Positions 33,100 to 47,767 of a stretch of DNA of 50,992 nt are shown here, one piece after another. Under the pieces are notes generated by a model. That model worked only from the letters and a program-made list of their open reading frames with translations. It did no database searches and was not told the DNA's origin. The position numbers and the translations under genes are program-made. The first letter of the stretch is position 1, and each line of letters begins with the position of its first letter. This DNA is from Candidatus Asgardarchaeum abyssi (lineage in GTDB: Archaea > Asgardarchaeota > Asgardarchaeia > Asgardarchaeales > Asgardarchaeaceae). The stretch covers positions 1-50,992 of the forward strand of contig JBECUL010000012.1 of the NCBI GenBank assembly GCA_040225955.1. Reading direction: 5' to 3'.

Positions 33100-34467
33100 T
33101 TATATCTCCTCTATAGTTACTTTTGTACTAAATGTTTCCTTTGGTACTTTCCAGTACTGTCTACTTTCATCCCAATACGGTGCCAAGATCGTTATTGGTC
33201 TCCTTCCTATATTTACATATCTTGGTATTAATTTATATGCAGCTACGTTATCTCTTAAAATAGCATCTAAATGATATGCTATTGTTGCTAATTTTGTTGA
33301 GGGAATTTCAATAAAACTTATGATGCCATCTGTTGTTTTTGCTAAATAGTACAACGGATAAGAATTAGAGAAATATCGAATGAATACCTCCATATCATCC
33401 TCACTATCTTTAAATGGTTCAATATAAACCATCAAAGAACCATCTAACATTATATTATTTACACGAACGACAGGATAATAGTACTTTCTATATTTTTTCT
33501 TAATTCTACATATGGTTGCTTCGCTGACGTTCAGATTGAAGTTCCTTTTTATAATTTCCTTTAGTTGCCTGATAGGTGCTCTAATATCAAATGTTGATAA
33601 TGTGTATACAATGAATTCCTTCTTTGTGAAAAATCTCTTTTCAAACGAATATTTAAGAAACTCAGGTCGTTGTAAAAACTCGTAATGATCTTTCATGAAA
33701 GAGTATGAAGAAACTATATCTTTGTGAACATCTAGATTCCAATCTCTCCCCTCAAATAGGAAGAAATTCATCCCGTAAGTGATTTCTCTTATTTCTTGCA
33801 GTTCATAATCAGTTATTAATCTGAATCTAAAAAGATTAACAATCCACCGCTTAAATCTTTCAATAACAGATACTTGATTAGGTATAGCAAAAGTCACCCA
33901 TCCATCTATTCTTCTCTCATACACTGCAAATGTATCAAGATTTATTGTTAGGGTAAATGGTGTCCAAAGAACATTCTTTACAAAAGAAACAGCCTCCCTA
34001 GGAATTGTTAAAAAAAGCACAAAGTGCCTTAACTTAAATATTGTAGGGTCTATTAGTGAATAGAATCTTAATCTATATTTATTTGATAACCTATTGACAT
34101 ATGCTCTAGCAGTTCTATAGTTCACCCCAAGATACTTTGCCAAATCTCTTGATTTAGCAGTCGGATTATTAACAATGAACTCTAATGTCTCTAAATCTCT
34201 TTTAGTTATCTTCTCTTGAGCGATAAAAATGGTTGAAAGAAATCTCTTAATCATTTCTTTATTTGTTATTCTATATTTTTCAATTATTCTAAGCCTGCTT
34301 TCTACCATCATCTTAAGGTTATCATCATTAGGAAGGCTAAAACCAGAAGGAGTTTGAGCTTTAAGCAAAATCTTTTTAGGTTCGTTATTCAAATATGCGT
34401 TTAATGCTTGGTATATCTCAATAATTTCATCGTCATCAATTGGTGGTTTATAGAATTTTTTTCTCAT
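33100..34467 (-). CDS. Large putative transcriptional regulator with two winged-HTH / Lrp-like modules
   Basis: HTH1 RDLETL..NPTAKSRDLAKYLGVNYRTARAYVNRL and HTH2 RAPIRQLKE..LNVSEATICRIKK, each followed by a ferredoxin/RAM-like alpha/beta segment. Confidence 0.7.
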   Translation of the reverse strand: MRKKFYKPPIDDDEIIEIYQALNAYLNNEPKKILLKAQTPSGFSLPNDDNLKMMVESRLRIIEKYRITNKEMIKRFLSTIFIAQEKITKRDLETLEFIVNNPTAKSRDLAKYLGVNYRTARAYVNRLSNKYRLRFYSLIDPTIFKLRHFVLFLTIPREAVSFVKNVLWTPFTLTINLDTFAVYERRIDGWVTFAIPNQVSVIERFKRWIVNLFRFRLITDYELQEIREITYGMNFFLFEGRDWNLDVHKDIVSSYSFMKDHYEFLQRPEFLKYSFEKRFFTKKEFIVYTLSTFDIRAPIRQLKEIIKRNFNLNVSEATICRIKKKYRKYYYPVVRVNNIMLDGSLMVYIEPFKDSEDDMEVFIRYFSNSYPLYYLAKTTDGIISFIEIPSTKLATIAYHLDAILRDNVAAYKLIPRYVNIGRRPITILAPYWDESRQYWKVPKETFSTKVTIEEI

Positions 34468-34697
34468 ATCAAACCACTATTATATTCAAATTAAAAAAAT
34501 GTACTATGTATATTGAAATAATATCAATAACTTACATTTAAATTTTTACACTTTTTTTCATATATAGTAAGAAAAAATCAACTAAAATCAGGTTAAATTA
34601 AAAAATAAGGATTATTACTAATTATTATTTATTTTTCAGAAAAAAGTCATCTTATTTTTGGAAAATAAGATAAAATAGTAATTATTTGCTCCATTTT

Positions 34698-34760
34698 GAA
34701 ATACTATTTAAATAAATGTGATGTTACAATTAATCAAAAAAGACAGGTAATAAGGGTGGT
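34698..34760 (+). promoter_or_regulatory. Putative BRE/TATA promoter and SD for the 13-aa micro-ORF
   Basis: GAAATAC-TATTTAAATA (34698-34714) lies about 50 nt upstream of ATG 34766. SD AGGGTGGT at 34753-34760. Confidence 0.5.
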
Positions 34761-34765
34761 AGTTT

Positions 34766-34807
34766 ATGAGAGACGATGCAGACCCAATTGACCCAACCCC
34801 ATTTTAA
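34766..34807 (+). CDS. Candidate micro-peptide MRDDADPIDPTPF (13 aa)
   Basis: ATG AGA GAC GAT GCA GAC CCA ATT GAC CCA ACC CCA TTT TAA, with an SD 5 nt upstream and a TATA-like box. It forms a GC-richer island in an AT-rich spacer. Confidence 0.55.
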   Translation: MRDDADPIDPTPF

Positions 34808-34971
34808 CATTGCTGTAAGTTAAGCATATCAAATCATAAAATAATTTTTATTGTTTATGCTCTTTAATCTAATCTCTTAATCCTTTTTTAGAAATAAGAA
34901 TTGGAGTTTTAATTTGTAGCGCCTTTATCATTATGATAATAATAAGAAAAAATAAAGGTAGGTGATTTGAT

Positions 34972-35199
34972 ATGTTATTTGCAGAAGCATTATTAGAGTT
35001 AGAAAATGATATAGTTGTAAATCCAAAGACTGATAGTTTGGTGTTGCGAGCAATTGCAGCAACCTTTGAGATACTAGAGGCTGACCTAAAAACAGTGTTC
35101 TCCCCAAAGGGGAAGCTGACATTAACTTTCGAAAATGGACTTGTCAAGGTGGTGATCAGAAAAAATGAAAAAGGAGATGTTGTCATTTCAACAGAATAG
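34972..35199 (+). CDS. Hypothetical protein (75 aa)
   Basis: SD AGGTGA upstream. Overlaps the next ORF by 35 nt. Confidence 0.65.
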   Translation: MLFAEALLELENDIVVNPKTDSLVLRAIAATFEILEADLKTVFSPKGKLTLTFENGLVKVVIRKNEKGDVVISTE

Positions 35200-35560
35200 C
35201 GGGGGAAAGGTAAAGGGAATAGGGCCAAATGCATTCTTCTTATTTTACGGTCCCGATTTTGTGGATCATTTGTTGAAGAACGGTTGGCTTCTGAAGGTTA
35301 TCTCTGTTCGCTGGGATACCGAGTACGGGTCGGGTATTTTCAACATGCATATTGTTCGGGGTAGTGTTTCGTCGTTCATCAGGAAGCACATTCTTGACAT
35401 TGTTAAGATAGAGCTCTATTACATATCCCCCAAGGGGATCGCGACCCTCAGGCTGACACCTTATGGGACAAATCTTGATGGCATGACTGAGGAGGAATTT
35501 AAACGTTTCATAAGTAATAAGAATTTCCCAGAGGAGATAAAGTCCTATCTACCCTTCTAA
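35165..35560 (+). CDS. Unknown-family protein, copy 1
   Basis: SD GGTGGTGA. The central part is identical to the ORF at 43937-44344. Confidence 0.75.
   Translation: MKKEMLSFQQNSGGKVKGIGPNAFFLFYGPDFVDHLLKNGWLLKVISVRWDTEYGSGIFNMHIVRGSVSSFIRKHILDIVKIELYYISPKGIATLRLTPYGTNLDGMTEEEFKRFISNKNFPEEIKSYLPF
35249..35502 (+). repeat. 254-bp perfect inverted repeat, left copy
   Basis: Exact reverse complement of 43995-44248 by base-wise reading. Confidence 0.93.
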
Positions 35561-43936: not shown

Positions 43937-44344
43937 TTAGAAAGATAGACAGTTCTTTAAATCTTCTGGAAATCTTTTACTATTTATAAAGTGCTTAAAT
44001 TCCTCCTCAGTCATGCCATCAAGATTTGTCCCATAAGGTGTCAGCCTGAGGGTCGCGATCCCCTTGGGGGATATGTAATAGAGCTCTATCTTAACAATGT
44101 CAAGAATGTGCTTCCTGATGAACGACGAAACACTACCCCGAACAATATGCATGTTGAAAATACCCGACCCGTACTCGGTATCCCAGCGAACAGAGATAAC
44201 CTTCAGAAGCCAACCGTTCTTCAACAAATGATCCACAAAATCGGGACCATAAAATAAGAAGAACATATTTGGGCCTATCTCTTTTTCTCTATTAATTTTT
44301 TGATGCTGTATAATCCCCTTTTCTAAAATTTTCGACACCACCAT
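43937..44344 (-). CDS. Unknown-family protein, copy 2
   Basis: Core identical to 35165-35560, with a different N-terminus and a diverged C-terminus of the same length. Confidence 0.75.
   Translation of the reverse strand: MVVSKILEKGIIQHQKINREKEIGPNMFFLFYGPDFVDHLLKNGWLLKVISVRWDTEYGSGIFNMHIVRGSVSSFIRKHILDIVKIELYYISPKGIATLRLTPYGTNLDGMTEEEFKHFINSKRFPEDLKNCLSF
43995..44248 (-). repeat. 254-bp perfect inverted repeat, right copy
   Basis: Exact reverse complement of 35249-35502. Confidence 0.93.
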
Positions 44345-44680: not shown

Positions 44681-45499
44681 TCATTCATAAATCCTTTTTA
44701 ATCTTTCACACTCCTCAAGCCATCCAATTTCTCTTAGCCCTATAAGCATAAATCGAAGATATGCGGGATTTGGTGGGCATTCTGGAACTTTAAACTCATC
44801 AGAAGCTGTATACGTTTCAGCATATACGTATCTGCCATTCTTCAAAAATATTCTTACAGTAATTCTTCTATAATGAACTGGTACCTTTTCATGCATGTCA
44901 AGCTGCTTTATATCAGGATACAGTATCTCATACAAGGCTCCGTAAACGATATCCCCCTCTGACTTTTCTATATTCGCACAGCAATTATCCATGCATCTTT
45001 TGTTAAAAGTAAGTTTATAATCCTTTAAGAAAGCAGGATATTTAGCTAAGATTTCAATACTACGTTCTTTCATTCTCCGAGTATAAATATCCGAGCCATA
45101 GGCAAAATAATTTATTTTTCCTGTTCTCTCTTTTTTAAAAGTATAATCCCCACTTTCAATAAGTTTACTATCTTTAGGTAAATCTCTATTGTACACATAA
45201 ATAATTACTTTTTCTTTATAATCGCCAAAAAAAGCGAACGTTTCCTCTTTAATATATAGTCCAGCGCTTGGATTTTCTCTATCTACGCCTTCTACACTGT
45301 CTAATGTATCCATTAATCTCTCATCGACCTCGTATACCTCACCGTGTACGATACCTGAGCCTGGAACAATTGCTGGGAAGAATTCCAAATCATAGAGATC
45401 ATATCCCTTAATTATAGCTCTACCTAAGAAAGGGTATTTCTTTAAATAAAAATGGAGATTGAAGCCGTGCATTAAAGTCCCATAAACGAACAATTTCAT
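44681..45499 (-). CDS. Tandem gamma-glutamylcyclotransferase-domain protein
   Basis: Domain 1 LFVYGTL..VHGEVY..LDSVEG; domain 2 YFAYGS..ANI..VYGALY..LDMHE. Confidence 0.88.
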   Translation of the reverse strand: MKLFVYGTLMHGFNLHFYLKKYPFLGRAIIKGYDLYDLEFFPAIVPGSGIVHGEVYEVDERLMDTLDSVEGVDRENPSAGLYIKEETFAFFGDYKEKVIIYVYNRDLPKDSKLIESGDYTFKKERTGKINYFAYGSDIYTRRMKERSIEILAKYPAFLKDYKLTFNKRCMDNCCANIEKSEGDIVYGALYEILYPDIKQLDMHEKVPVHYRRITVRIFLKNGRYVYAETYTASDEFKVPECPPNPAYLRFMLIGLREIGWLEECERLKRIYE

Positions 45500-46102: not shown

Positions 46103-46660
46103 TTAATATTCAAAGTTCATAGCATTATAGATTTCCTTAGGAAGATTGGGGCAGTTCTTATCAAGGTAATATTTGCTTTCTATTACTTGAGCATGTAGTA
46201 GGACTTTAAATTCGTCATCCGAAAGATATGTAGTTGGCATTAATTCCCTAAATCTTTCTTGAGATATACCTGGCACTTCTACAGGTATCAATACTTTTTC
46301 CCACACTAAGTGTGATTTCACAGCCCTTTTGTAGCTTGCAGGAGAAAAAGCTCAGTTTCTTCGATAGTCGGTCTTGTACCTCCCATGGCCTTTGGTATAC
46401 CATTCACTTCAATCAGTATAGGCTCTGGTACCATTACTGTCTTATTTCCTAATTTCTTTCAACCCATTTATACCGGGCTATTATTCTTCTTGTGGTATTG
46501 AATTGATAAACTTCTACTGGATCTCCTTTCTCCTTTTCAGATATTGATAAAACCTAACTACATGAGCTGTATTTGTGACATCAGTTGTAAATGGCTGTGC
46601 GTATCTTGCAACATACCTAACCCTGCCGATAACTTCTTTTGCTTGAGCAGGATGCTCTAT
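46103..46660 (-). pseudogene. Decayed 3' remnant of an unknown gene
   Basis: Coding-like fragments in shifting frames (EHPAQAKEVIGRVRYVARYAQPF; GNKTVMVPEPILIEVNGIPKAMGG; KSHLVWEKVLIPV...NFEY) interrupted by stops. Confidence 0.5.
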
Positions 46661-46950
46661 TGTTTTCTGATAAATAATGAAACGTTGCTACGAATAATAT
46701 GTATGTTAAAAATTCCCGACCCGTACTCAGTGTTCCAACGAACGGAGATGGCCTTCAGAAGCCAACTGTTTCTTAACAGATGATCTACAAAATCTGGTGC
46801 ATATAGCAAGAAAAATGCATGTGGTTCAATATTTTTTGCATCATCTGATCTTTGCTCAGATAATATTTTCTTATTCACGTTTCTTACATCACCGATTTTT
46901 CTCTTTGCTTGGCAAAAATTACAAATTATCAAATTTTGCGCTTTATCCAC
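46657..46950 (-). pseudogene. Unknown-family protein, copy 3 (diverged, C-terminally truncated)
   Basis: FFLLYAPDFVDHLLRNSWLLKAISVRWNTEYGSGIFNIHII matches copies 1 and 2. Homology stops abruptly at FIRKQ*. Confidence 0.75.
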
Positions 46951-47357
46951 CCTTTCTTTATTTCTTCTATTTCGTACTTTCTTATGGCATCTTCTAATAA
47001 CTTACGAGCTAATTCAAAAAACCTTTTATCAGAGTGTATAATAATACCTCTTTTAAAAACTTCCAGAGGTGTTGTATGGCCTTTTTTACACAGCTCTAAA
47101 AACTCATTAACTTTTAATCCTATAGGTTCTATTGGTATGCCAAACTCATCAAGTTGTAGAAGAATACTTAATCTATCTAGCACATGATCTGGTAGGTTGT
47201 CACTTACGATTATTAAATCAATATCACTTCCCAATCCAAAAGTTCCTCTAGCCAGAGAACCTATTATAGCTACTAGTTTCGGTTTTATCTCCTTAATTAA
47301 CTTATTTAGATAAAGTTCTAATTCGCTCTTAAAAGGAATGTCAACACTTATATCCAT
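46929..47357 (-). CDS. Minimal nucleotidyltransferase (MNT, putative antitoxin)
   Basis: GSLARG....SDIDLIIV motif; overlaps the HEPN gene. Confidence 0.92.
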   Translation of the reverse strand: MDISVDIPFKSELELYLNKLIKEIKPKLVAIIGSLARGTFGLGSDIDLIIVSDNLPDHVLDRLSILLQLDEFGIPIEPIGLKVNEFLELCKKGHTTPLEVFKRGIIIHSDKRFFELARKLLEDAIRKYEIEEIKKGWIKRKI

Positions 47358-47767
47358 TCTCTTGCCTCACTTTTGATAAATTTTATAATCTTAGTCGCAC
47401 AATCTATAGCTTTTTTAGCTGTGGGCTCATCGTAATATTCGAAGGGTGATCCGCTGTAGAAAGCATTAGCATACCGTGTAGGAATATAATGTCTATCTAA
47501 TTCTCTAGAGCATACTTCTATGTCTGTATCTATCTGAATTCCTTTATTTTTTAATTCTCTAAGTAGTGAGCCTATTGAATGGCCAAACGCTGCTATGCCT
47601 AAACCATACAATAGTGCTTTTACTGAAAATTCTGCGGCTTGTTGTGCCTTAAATGAAGCCCACGAGTAGTCACCACCGAGTAAATCCTTTTTCGCACTCT
47701 CTAAAGTGTATTCTGCTTGCTTCATCCATCTCTCATATTCATCTATATCAAACATTATTTCCACCAT
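47348..47767 (-). CDS. HEPN domain protein (putative toxin)
   Basis: W..QAE..L..A, SFKAQQAAE..VKALL, GHSI, LDRHYIPTRYAN. Confidence 0.92.
   Translation of the reverse strand: MVEIMFDIDEYERWMKQAEYTLESAKKDLLGGDYSWASFKAQQAAEFSVKALLYGLGIAAFGHSIGSLLRELKNKGIQIDTDIEVCSRELDRHYIPTRYANAFYSGSPFEYYDEPTAKKAIDCATKIIKFIKSEAREWI

Follow-up and report, generated by a model that had tools for sequence, protein, structure and literature searches.

A 13-codon micropeptide gene in a tandem-Lrp regulator cassette of Asgard archaea and its peptide as a candidate regulator effector

The leaderless communication peptides of Streptococcus, Enterococcus, and Limosilactobacillus are 8 to 9 amino acids (aa) long, are encoded divergently from the gene of a RopB-type receptor, and are imported independently of Opp (PMC10518010). 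They are synthesized directly in their final form, their receptor is a cytoplasmic DNA-binding protein, and the peptide gene is often followed by regulated genes. Here we describe a locus of similar layout in the archaeon Candidatus Asgardarchaeum abyssi, on a stretch of 50,992 nucleotides (nt) that we call the window (contig JBECUL010000012.1, positions 1 to 50,992, assembly GCA_040225955.1). A leaderless micropeptide gene of 13 codons lies head to head, at 298 bp, with the gene of a 455-aa regulator and is followed by an operon. The differences from the RopB system lie in the parts. In that system the receptor is an RRNPP protein of the TPR type and the peptides are hydrophobic; here the regulator has a predicted tandem Lrp/AsnC fold, and the peptide is acidic and Pro-rich and belongs to an archaeon.

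The Rgg/SHP, Rap/Phr, PlcR/PapR, NprR/NprX, and AimR/AimP systems share with this locus a small peptide gene beside or divergent from its receptor-regulator, with many orthogonal pairs per genome. RRNPP(A) propeptides end in a short active C-terminal part, which resembles the long peptide forms that we find at several related loci (L002, L003, L005, L037, and L046). No component is homologous, however: the receptor fold differs, a Roadblock-like gene is added, and an Opp-type binding protein was not found in the genome. The regulator resembles NirDL/AhbAB in that two modules, each a winged helix-turn-helix (wHTH) with a RAM domain, are fused in one chain (4ch7), but NirDL acts as an enzyme in the synthesis of heme d1. 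Canonical members of the Lrp/AsnC (FFRP) class differ in being about 150 aa long and in sensing amino acids. The tandem-Lrp family is set apart from both by 85 additional N-terminal residues and by a Trp motif at the C terminus. A literature search returned no description of a cassette combining a tandem-Lrp protein, a micropeptide, and a Roadblock-like protein. To our knowledge, no peptide-based regulation or communication has been demonstrated in Archaea, and the literature search found none.

The micropeptide gene and its cassette

The micropeptide ends in D-P-T-P-F, a Pro-x-Pro-hydrophobic terminus, and its open reading frame (ORF) is preceded by an in-frame TAG two codons upstream of the ATG. 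Four of its codons are CCN proline codons, which is unexpected among 13 codons because the intergenic region is only 22% G+C. When the 504-nt intergenic region was shuffled 20,000 times, an ATG-initiated ORF of at least 8 aa that ended in P-x-P plus 0 to 3 residues arose 48 times, and an ORF of at most 16 aa with at least four prolines never arose; a chance ORF is excluded by these shuffles. The locus is 100% identical in an independent Joint Genome Institute metagenome contig (L034). Rfam and tRNA scans of the window returned no family and no tRNA. An earlier note, made from the letters of the window alone, had proposed this ORF with a Shine-Dalgarno site 5 nt upstream, a palindromic box about 50 nt upstream, and a head-to-head arrangement of about 300 bp. 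The coordinates are confirmed in the sequence, the box TATTTAAATA is present 52 nt upstream, and the 298 bp separate the start codon of the micropeptide gene from that of the 455-aa protein. On sequence evidence, we regard the ORF as a genuine, conserved protein-coding gene.

A further comparison is with contig L037, from the metagenome series that also yielded L034. This contig holds the beginning of a regulator gene (51% identity at the N terminus of the protein), a 73-aa Roadblock-like gene (40/75 identical), and the beginning of a homolog of the 131-aa protein encoded in the window, and it is therefore the ortholog of the cassette in a related organism. The peptide gene of L037 is 50 codons long and includes a signal-peptide-like segment (Kyte-Doolittle maximum, 2.9) with hydrophobic-hydrophobic-Ala at its end, immediately ahead of an Asp. 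The last 11 residues, which have the same terminal motif, are identical to those of the window peptide at 9 of 11 positions, and the two differences (N/D and V/I) are conservative; the identity of the tails is thus higher than that of the Roadblock-like proteins or of the regulator N termini. At the DNA level, 8 of the 33 nt of the tail differ, 6 of them at third codon positions; the probability that eight random substitutions would change at most two residues and create no stop is about 0.003. In the neighboring gene, 21 of 40 codons for identical residues differ between the two contigs. This pattern indicates that the micropeptide is under coding-level selection. Across loci, the prolines of the terminal motif are encoded by CCA (40), CCG (24), CCT (19), and CCC (13), with each of the three stop codons also in use, so that conservation concerns the peptide rather than a DNA or RNA element.

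Upstream of the window micropeptide, no hydrophobic segment was found in any of the three frames (maxima of 1.1 to 1.6, with stops). A signal peptide hidden by a frameshift or an assembly error is ruled out by this result together with the identical contig L034. The window gene reads as a leaderless derivative of the long form, consisting of Met-Arg joined to the tail that is predicted to be the mature product after Ala/Asp cleavage. The signal segment may have been lost by an in-frame deletion or by decay with recruitment of a new start; the DNA alignment with L037 is ambiguous in this AT-rich stretch. A second pair of loci shows a comparable change: L005 has a long form and L006 a form of 11 codons, the two have the tail core P-Q-D-P-aromatic-P in common, and the identity between their regulators is 50%. 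A change between an exported and a leaderless form in which the tail was retained is thus seen twice, independently. Production of one and the same tail in extracellular and intracellular forms is consistent with an ultimate target in the cytoplasm, the compartment of the regulator. We infer that function resides in the acidic C-terminal tail, with several prolines and a P-x-P-hydrophobic end.

The unit to which the gene belongs consists of the micropeptide gene, which comes first, a gene for a 75-aa Roadblock-like protein, and a gene for a 131-aa protein, all transcribed divergently from the tandem Lrp/AsnC-type regulator. A profile of the regulator matched 133 of 400 Asgard genomes, often with several copies each; the window gene, itself a member of the profile, scored an E value of 3.5e-218, and the nearest genomes of other families reached values down to 1e-72. 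The same profile retrieved 183 proteins from 1.84 billion cluster representatives, so that, on present evidence, the family seems confined to about 180 of them. In the loci that we fetched, a short ORF with a polar-P-x-P-hydrophobic end lies about 230 to 380 nt from the regulator in the divergent orientation. Such a motif ORF occurs in 28 of 80 divergent flanks, compared with 3 of 80 on the opposite strand and with a mean of 4.1 (maximum, 11) in shuffled sequences. Between the regulator and the Roadblock-like gene, a micro-ORF is present in 20 of 23 cassettes, or in 21 of 23 when a GTG start is accepted. The earlier note had named the lack of a comparable micro-ORF beside homologous regulators as evidence against its proposal; comparable divergent micro-ORFs are found in several Asgard families, an outcome in favor of the proposal. 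A genome search at the level of the order found no further genome of this order in the collection.

The form of the peptide gene varies among lineages. In family f12, the micro-ORFs have 10 to 14 codons and lack a hydrophobic segment; at L005, L046, and several loci of family f31, they have 33 to 52 codons and include one. In other families, leaderless forms of 8 to 17 codons are the rule. The distance from the micro-ORF to the next gene ranges from 11 to 164 nt across loci, and the Roadblock-like gene often begins 11 to 22 nt downstream. In f31, the ORFs after the peptide have no detectable similarity to the Roadblock-like family, and the regulator is retained. The regulator of the f31 loci (L053 to L086) is usually a two-gene tandem, with a form of about 360 aa that lacks the N-terminal region followed by a form of about 480 aa. 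Where the flank is long enough, this pair is preceded by a hydrophobic prepeptide of 33 to 50 codons with the tail C-E-D-P-x-P-F, whose D-P-x-P-F end is like that of the window.

The genome itself holds two further full regulator paralogs, both on contig C6 (loci L002 and L003), which are 32% and 25% identical to the window protein (E values of 6e-70 and 4e-29). Each faces an ORF of 50 to 55 codons with a basic N terminus, a hydrophobic segment, and the sequence hydrophobic-hydrophobic-Ala followed by Asp. A 13-residue Pro-rich tail completes these prepeptides and ends in P-x-P-I plus two residues, and a homolog of the 75-aa gene comes next. A fourth, distant regulator copy of 541 aa on contig C24 (23400-28100; L084) faces a Pro/Trp-rich ORF of 26 codons.

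Proteins, control sites, and neighboring genes

The AlphaFold2 model of the 455-aa protein, built from an alignment of 66 relatives, is of high quality (predicted local distance difference test [pLDDT], 90.4; predicted template modeling score, 0.84). It consists of a helical N terminus of about 85 aa, two wHTH plus RAM-like modules at residues ~89 to 233 and ~282 to 416, and a C-terminal Trp motif; the RAM topology of the modules is beta-alpha-beta-beta-alpha-beta. In a Foldseek search of the PDB, the top match was NirDL (4ch7), a double-Lrp fusion (E value, 3e-9), followed by many single Lrp/AsnC regulators, among them PH0140, PH0061, ST1022, FL11-type, AsnC, and Lrp (3e-5 to 4e-3); the model matched no folds other than those of Lrp/AsnC proteins and NirDL. 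These results bear out the earlier description of the protein as two wHTH plus ligand-domain-like modules. In sequence profile searches, the protein alone had only a subthreshold match to HTH_24 in Pfam, and among the 66 relatives, 41 matched HTH_24 and 19 matched HTH_AsnC-type. The Pfam RAM domain family AsnC_trans_reg was matched neither by the window protein nor by the 66 relatives at an E value of ≤0.01. The 23 Pfam families matched by these relatives include no TPR or Rgg family and none of the siroheme decarboxylase type, and PADLOC gave only weak wHTH-type matches to the regulator. From the model, we place the protein in the Lrp/AsnC fold class, as a tandem and extended form. Trp and Pro make up most of the near-invariant residues of the family.

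The 75-aa protein is encoded by the second gene of the cassette. A hidden Markov model (HMM) of the family matches it with an E value of 1.4e-20 and found homologs after the micro-ORF in 22 loci initially and 24 ORFs once loci were added. The genome has three Roadblock-like genes of this 75-aa type, each within a cassette. The model of the protein (pLDDT, 85.8) has as its top VIA-align match the Odinarchaeota Roadblock protein 7f8f (Z score, 6.2), within a list of about 20 Roadblock, LAMTOR, MglB, and longin rows, with profilin lower down; Foldseek assigned Roadblock rows probabilities of 0.9 to 0.98 but E values of about 0.1. Pfam, including Robl_LC7, gave no match to it, nor did NCBIfam, PADLOC, or Atlas, and its N terminus is shorter than in canonical Roadblock/LC7 members. 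The structural comparison thus gives modest support for calling the protein Roadblock-like. Two loci of family f2 (L010, 3194-3529; L011, 3201-3530) have a longer Roadblock-like gene, of 110 to 112 aa with an N-terminal extension. Neither the regulator nor the Roadblock-like protein contains a hydrophobic segment.

The 131-aa protein, which has homologs encoded after the Roadblock-like gene at L002 and L037, had no match in Pfam, NCBIfam, PADLOC, or Atlas. Its family has only four copies in the genome, and two of the copies lie elsewhere in the window without a regulator, peptide, or Roadblock-like gene. One of these is intact and 85 to 87% identical; the other, broken by a TAG, is 64% identical over its first 80 residues. 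The intact copy adjoins a gene whose 272-aa product has a pair of gamma-glutamyl cyclotransferase-like (GGACT/AIG2) domains, and the broken copy adjoins a toxin-antitoxin-type HEPN/MNT pair, encoded by overlapping genes for a HEPN domain (E value, 2e-31) and a minimal nucleotidyltransferase (NTP_transf_2; 2e-8). The further neighbors in the window are ordinary genes of metabolism and include a glycosyltransferase, a DUF488 protein, an F420-type oxidoreductase, a malate/lactate dehydrogenase, and a PfkB kinase, none of which is common to the other loci.

The intergenic region between the divergent genes holds several putative control sites (Table 1). GGTGAT-type sites precede the prepeptide genes of L037 and L002 as well as the 75-aa gene at the same spacing as the Shine-Dalgarno-like site of the micropeptide gene. 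The palindrome TATTTAAATA is most simply read as the likely TATA box of the micropeptide promoter, and a similarly placed A/T box lies 5' of the prepeptide gene in L037. From the TATA-to-start spacing general to archaeal promoters, transcription would begin near position 34736, leaving an untranslated leader of about 30 nt. The block containing ATTTAAAT is nearly identical in L037, where the remaining intergenic DNA has diverged, and it is likely a promoter element (TATA) of the regulator gene or an operator. The near-palindrome in the middle of the region showed no conservation in L037 and is a candidate operator. Two oligo-T runs past the micropeptide stop could be archaeal terminators, in which case the micropeptide may have a short mRNA of its own. 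The predicted fold of this putative transcript (34736-34895) is not more stable than that of shuffled sequences (z score, +0.71).

Table 1. Features of the cassette and of related genes in the window
Feature	Position	Strand	Basis or remark
455-aa tandem Lrp/AsnC-type DNA-binding protein (predicted)	33100-34467	-	ORF, AlphaFold2, Foldseek, Pfam
A/T-rich block of 24 nt with ATTTAAAT, candidate promoter or operator	34536-34559		~70-90 nt 5' of the regulator ATG; DNA alignment with L037
Near-palindrome, 18-nt arms, 83% complementary, 4-nt spacer; candidate operator	34629-34668		Repeat search; mid-intergenic
TATTTAAATA, likely archaeal TATA box of the micropeptide promoter	34705-34714	+	Sequence
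Shine-Dalgarno-like AGGGTGGT, GGTG core	34753-34760	+	Ends 5 nt before the micropeptide ATG
Micropeptide gene	34766-34807	+	13 sense codons (ATG first) and TAA; Met-Arg plus 11-residue acidic tail
Oligo-T run T5, possible terminator	34845-34849	+	38 nt past the micropeptide stop
Oligo-T run T6, possible terminator	34884-34889	+	77 nt past the micropeptide stop
75-aa Roadblock/LC7-like protein, second cassette gene	34972-35199	+	HMM, model, VIA-align, Foldseek
131-aa protein, third cassette gene in this lineage	35165-35560	+	Homologs after the Roadblock-like gene (L002, L037)
Extra copy of the 131-aa gene	43937-44344	-
272-aa protein, two GGACT/AIG2 domains	44681-45499	-	Adjoins the intact stand-alone 131-aa copy
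Extra copy of the 131-aa gene	46642-46950	-
HEPN domain protein	46929-47357	-	Overlaps the next gene
Minimal nucleotidyltransferase	47348-47767	-	NTP_transf_2

The peptide as a candidate effector and its alternatives

By analogy with divergent peptide-receptor pairs, the peptide is a candidate effector ligand of the neighboring tandem-Lrp regulator, a tentative reading to which we assign a probability of roughly 0.4. The two RAM-like modules would form, within a single chain, the usual ligand-sensing unit of Lrp proteins, and binding of the peptide would change the action of the regulator on the common 300-bp promoter region. This could provide feedback on the peptide operon and perhaps also on the regulator gene. 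Prepeptides with an export signal could let the circuit sense the exterior of the cell, as cell-cell or self signaling. The window peptide would be produced in its final form in the cytoplasm and would either act inside the cell or leave and re-enter by leader-independent routes, as shown for the leaderless communication peptides of Firmicutes. We rank the regulator as the likelier receptor because it looks like the constant partner, kept in f31 where the Roadblock-like family is not detected, because its fold is that of a ligand sensor, and because several divergent peptide-regulator pairs coexist in one genome. Its invariant Trp and Pro residues would also suit a Pro-rich ligand; Pro-rich peptides are typically bound by aromatic cradles. 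With their differing tails and with regulators only 25 to 32% identical, the several cassettes of this genome look like orthogonal peptide-receptor pairs.

A number of observations weigh against this assignment. The case for expression of the micropeptide gene is made from conservation only. The ligands of canonical Lrp/AsnC proteins are amino acids, not peptides. An Opp-type peptide-binding protein (PF00496) was not found in the 93%-complete genome, which encodes two OPT-family transporters. The window copy would not be exportable by the Sec route, and the term signal is unsupported for this copy. The Roadblock-like protein is an equally adjacent candidate partner of the peptide. Among regulators with no detected Roadblock-like neighbor, a motif ORF occurs in just 12 of 57, many of the 57 being second genes of tandems or loci with short flanks. 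Finally, L010 and L011 have the Roadblock-like gene without a recognizable micro-ORF. A complex prediction of the L002 regulator with residues 26 to 55 of its prepeptide scored 0.00 and gives no verdict either way.

It is plausible, if unlikely, that the peptide instead has as its partner the cotranscribed 75-aa Roadblock-like protein (or the 131-aa protein), with the tandem-Lrp protein merely controlling the operon through another ligand. The Roadblock-like gene directly follows the micro-ORF in 20 to 21 of 23 cassettes, often after 11 to 22 nt, and its product resembles Roadblock/longin-type interaction modules, with profilin lower in the VIA-align list; profilin-type alpha/beta folds bind polyproline. 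Against this, the ORFs after the f31 peptides are not similar to the Roadblock-like family while the regulator stays, and L010 and L011 keep the Roadblock-like gene with no recognizable peptide. Exported forms, moreover, would be no less cut off from a cytoplasmic Roadblock-like protein than from the regulator. More remote is a role of the micro-ORF as a cis-acting leader, in which the ribosome is slowed at D-P and P-x-P codons close to the stop, depending on aIF5A or proline supply, and the stalled ribosome controls downstream read-through or translation while the peptide itself has no role. Pro and Asp residues slow peptide-bond formation and termination (as in EF-P/eIF5A-dependent motifs), and the conserved part falls within the last five to six codons before the stop and is rich in both. 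The micro-ORF is also always first in the operon and, in the window, is followed by oligo-T runs. Such a leader would not explain the spacing of 11 to 164 nt to the next gene, the lack of significant RNA structure (the z score of +0.71), or the very different tails of paralogs that are read by the same ribosome in one genome, and it would have no need of the signal-peptide-like segment and conserved small residue before Asp that many members possess. A force sensor of the SecM/MifM type is implausible: the long forms have 40 to 55 aa with only 9 to 14 residues after the hydrophobic segment, which, judging from the length of the ribosomal tunnel, would still be inside the tunnel at the stop. 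For a chain of 50 aa, 11 to 13 residues follow that segment. In this the long forms differ from the force-sensing types among arrest and leader peptides (SecM, MifM, VemP, and TnaC), being too short to expose a targeting segment at arrest, and the window form has no such segment.

The window copy could also be a decaying relic, inactivated by loss of the signal part so recently that the 13-codon frame survives; we consider this improbable, even more so than a cis-acting leader. The closest ortholog and both C6 paralogs do have the long form, and none of the three frames of the window copy yields a hydrophobic segment. Decay sits poorly with a start codon that has a Shine-Dalgarno-like site at canonical distance and a TATA-like box directly before the tail, and with a tail that has accumulated synonymous changes and almost no replacements while synonymous sites in the neighboring gene are near saturation. 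The regulator, Roadblock-like, and 131-aa genes are all intact. Leaderless forms of 8 to 17 codons are normal in other families, and the independent L005/L006 switch from a long to a leaderless form likewise kept the tail. The earlier note had further offered a precursor of a ribosomally synthesized and posttranslationally modified peptide (RiPP), and the peptide, as such a precursor or as a substrate of some other modifying enzyme, is indeed short and Pro/Asp-rich, with Cys in the L002 and f31 tails. This idea found no support and is very improbable, as no enzyme-like gene is conserved among the cassettes and the window form lacks a leader by which a modifying enzyme could recognize it. The same note had seen no modifying enzyme adjacent to the gene, which library scans of the neighboring genes bear out.

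A bolder extension of the effector-ligand reading is that these cassettes form a widespread and diversifying Asgard peptide-signaling system, with a Pro-rich peptide of 8 to 15 residues, a single-chain double-Lrp receptor, and a Roadblock-like adaptor, in which lineages switch between exported and leaderless forms and the window represents a mature-peptide-only variant. We hold this to be possible but doubtful. The cassette is present in about one-third of the sampled Asgard genomes, and genes as small as 13 codons are invisible to annotation. The repeated switching between exported and leaderless forms provides a natural experiment on the site at which the peptide acts. If this extension is right, the system would be the first in Archaea to communicate by peptides, its parts having no relation to those of bacterial systems, and peptides would be a new class of ligand for the Lrp/RAM fold. 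It would also represent a novel kind of regulatory circuit among the prokaryotes most closely related to eukaryotes.

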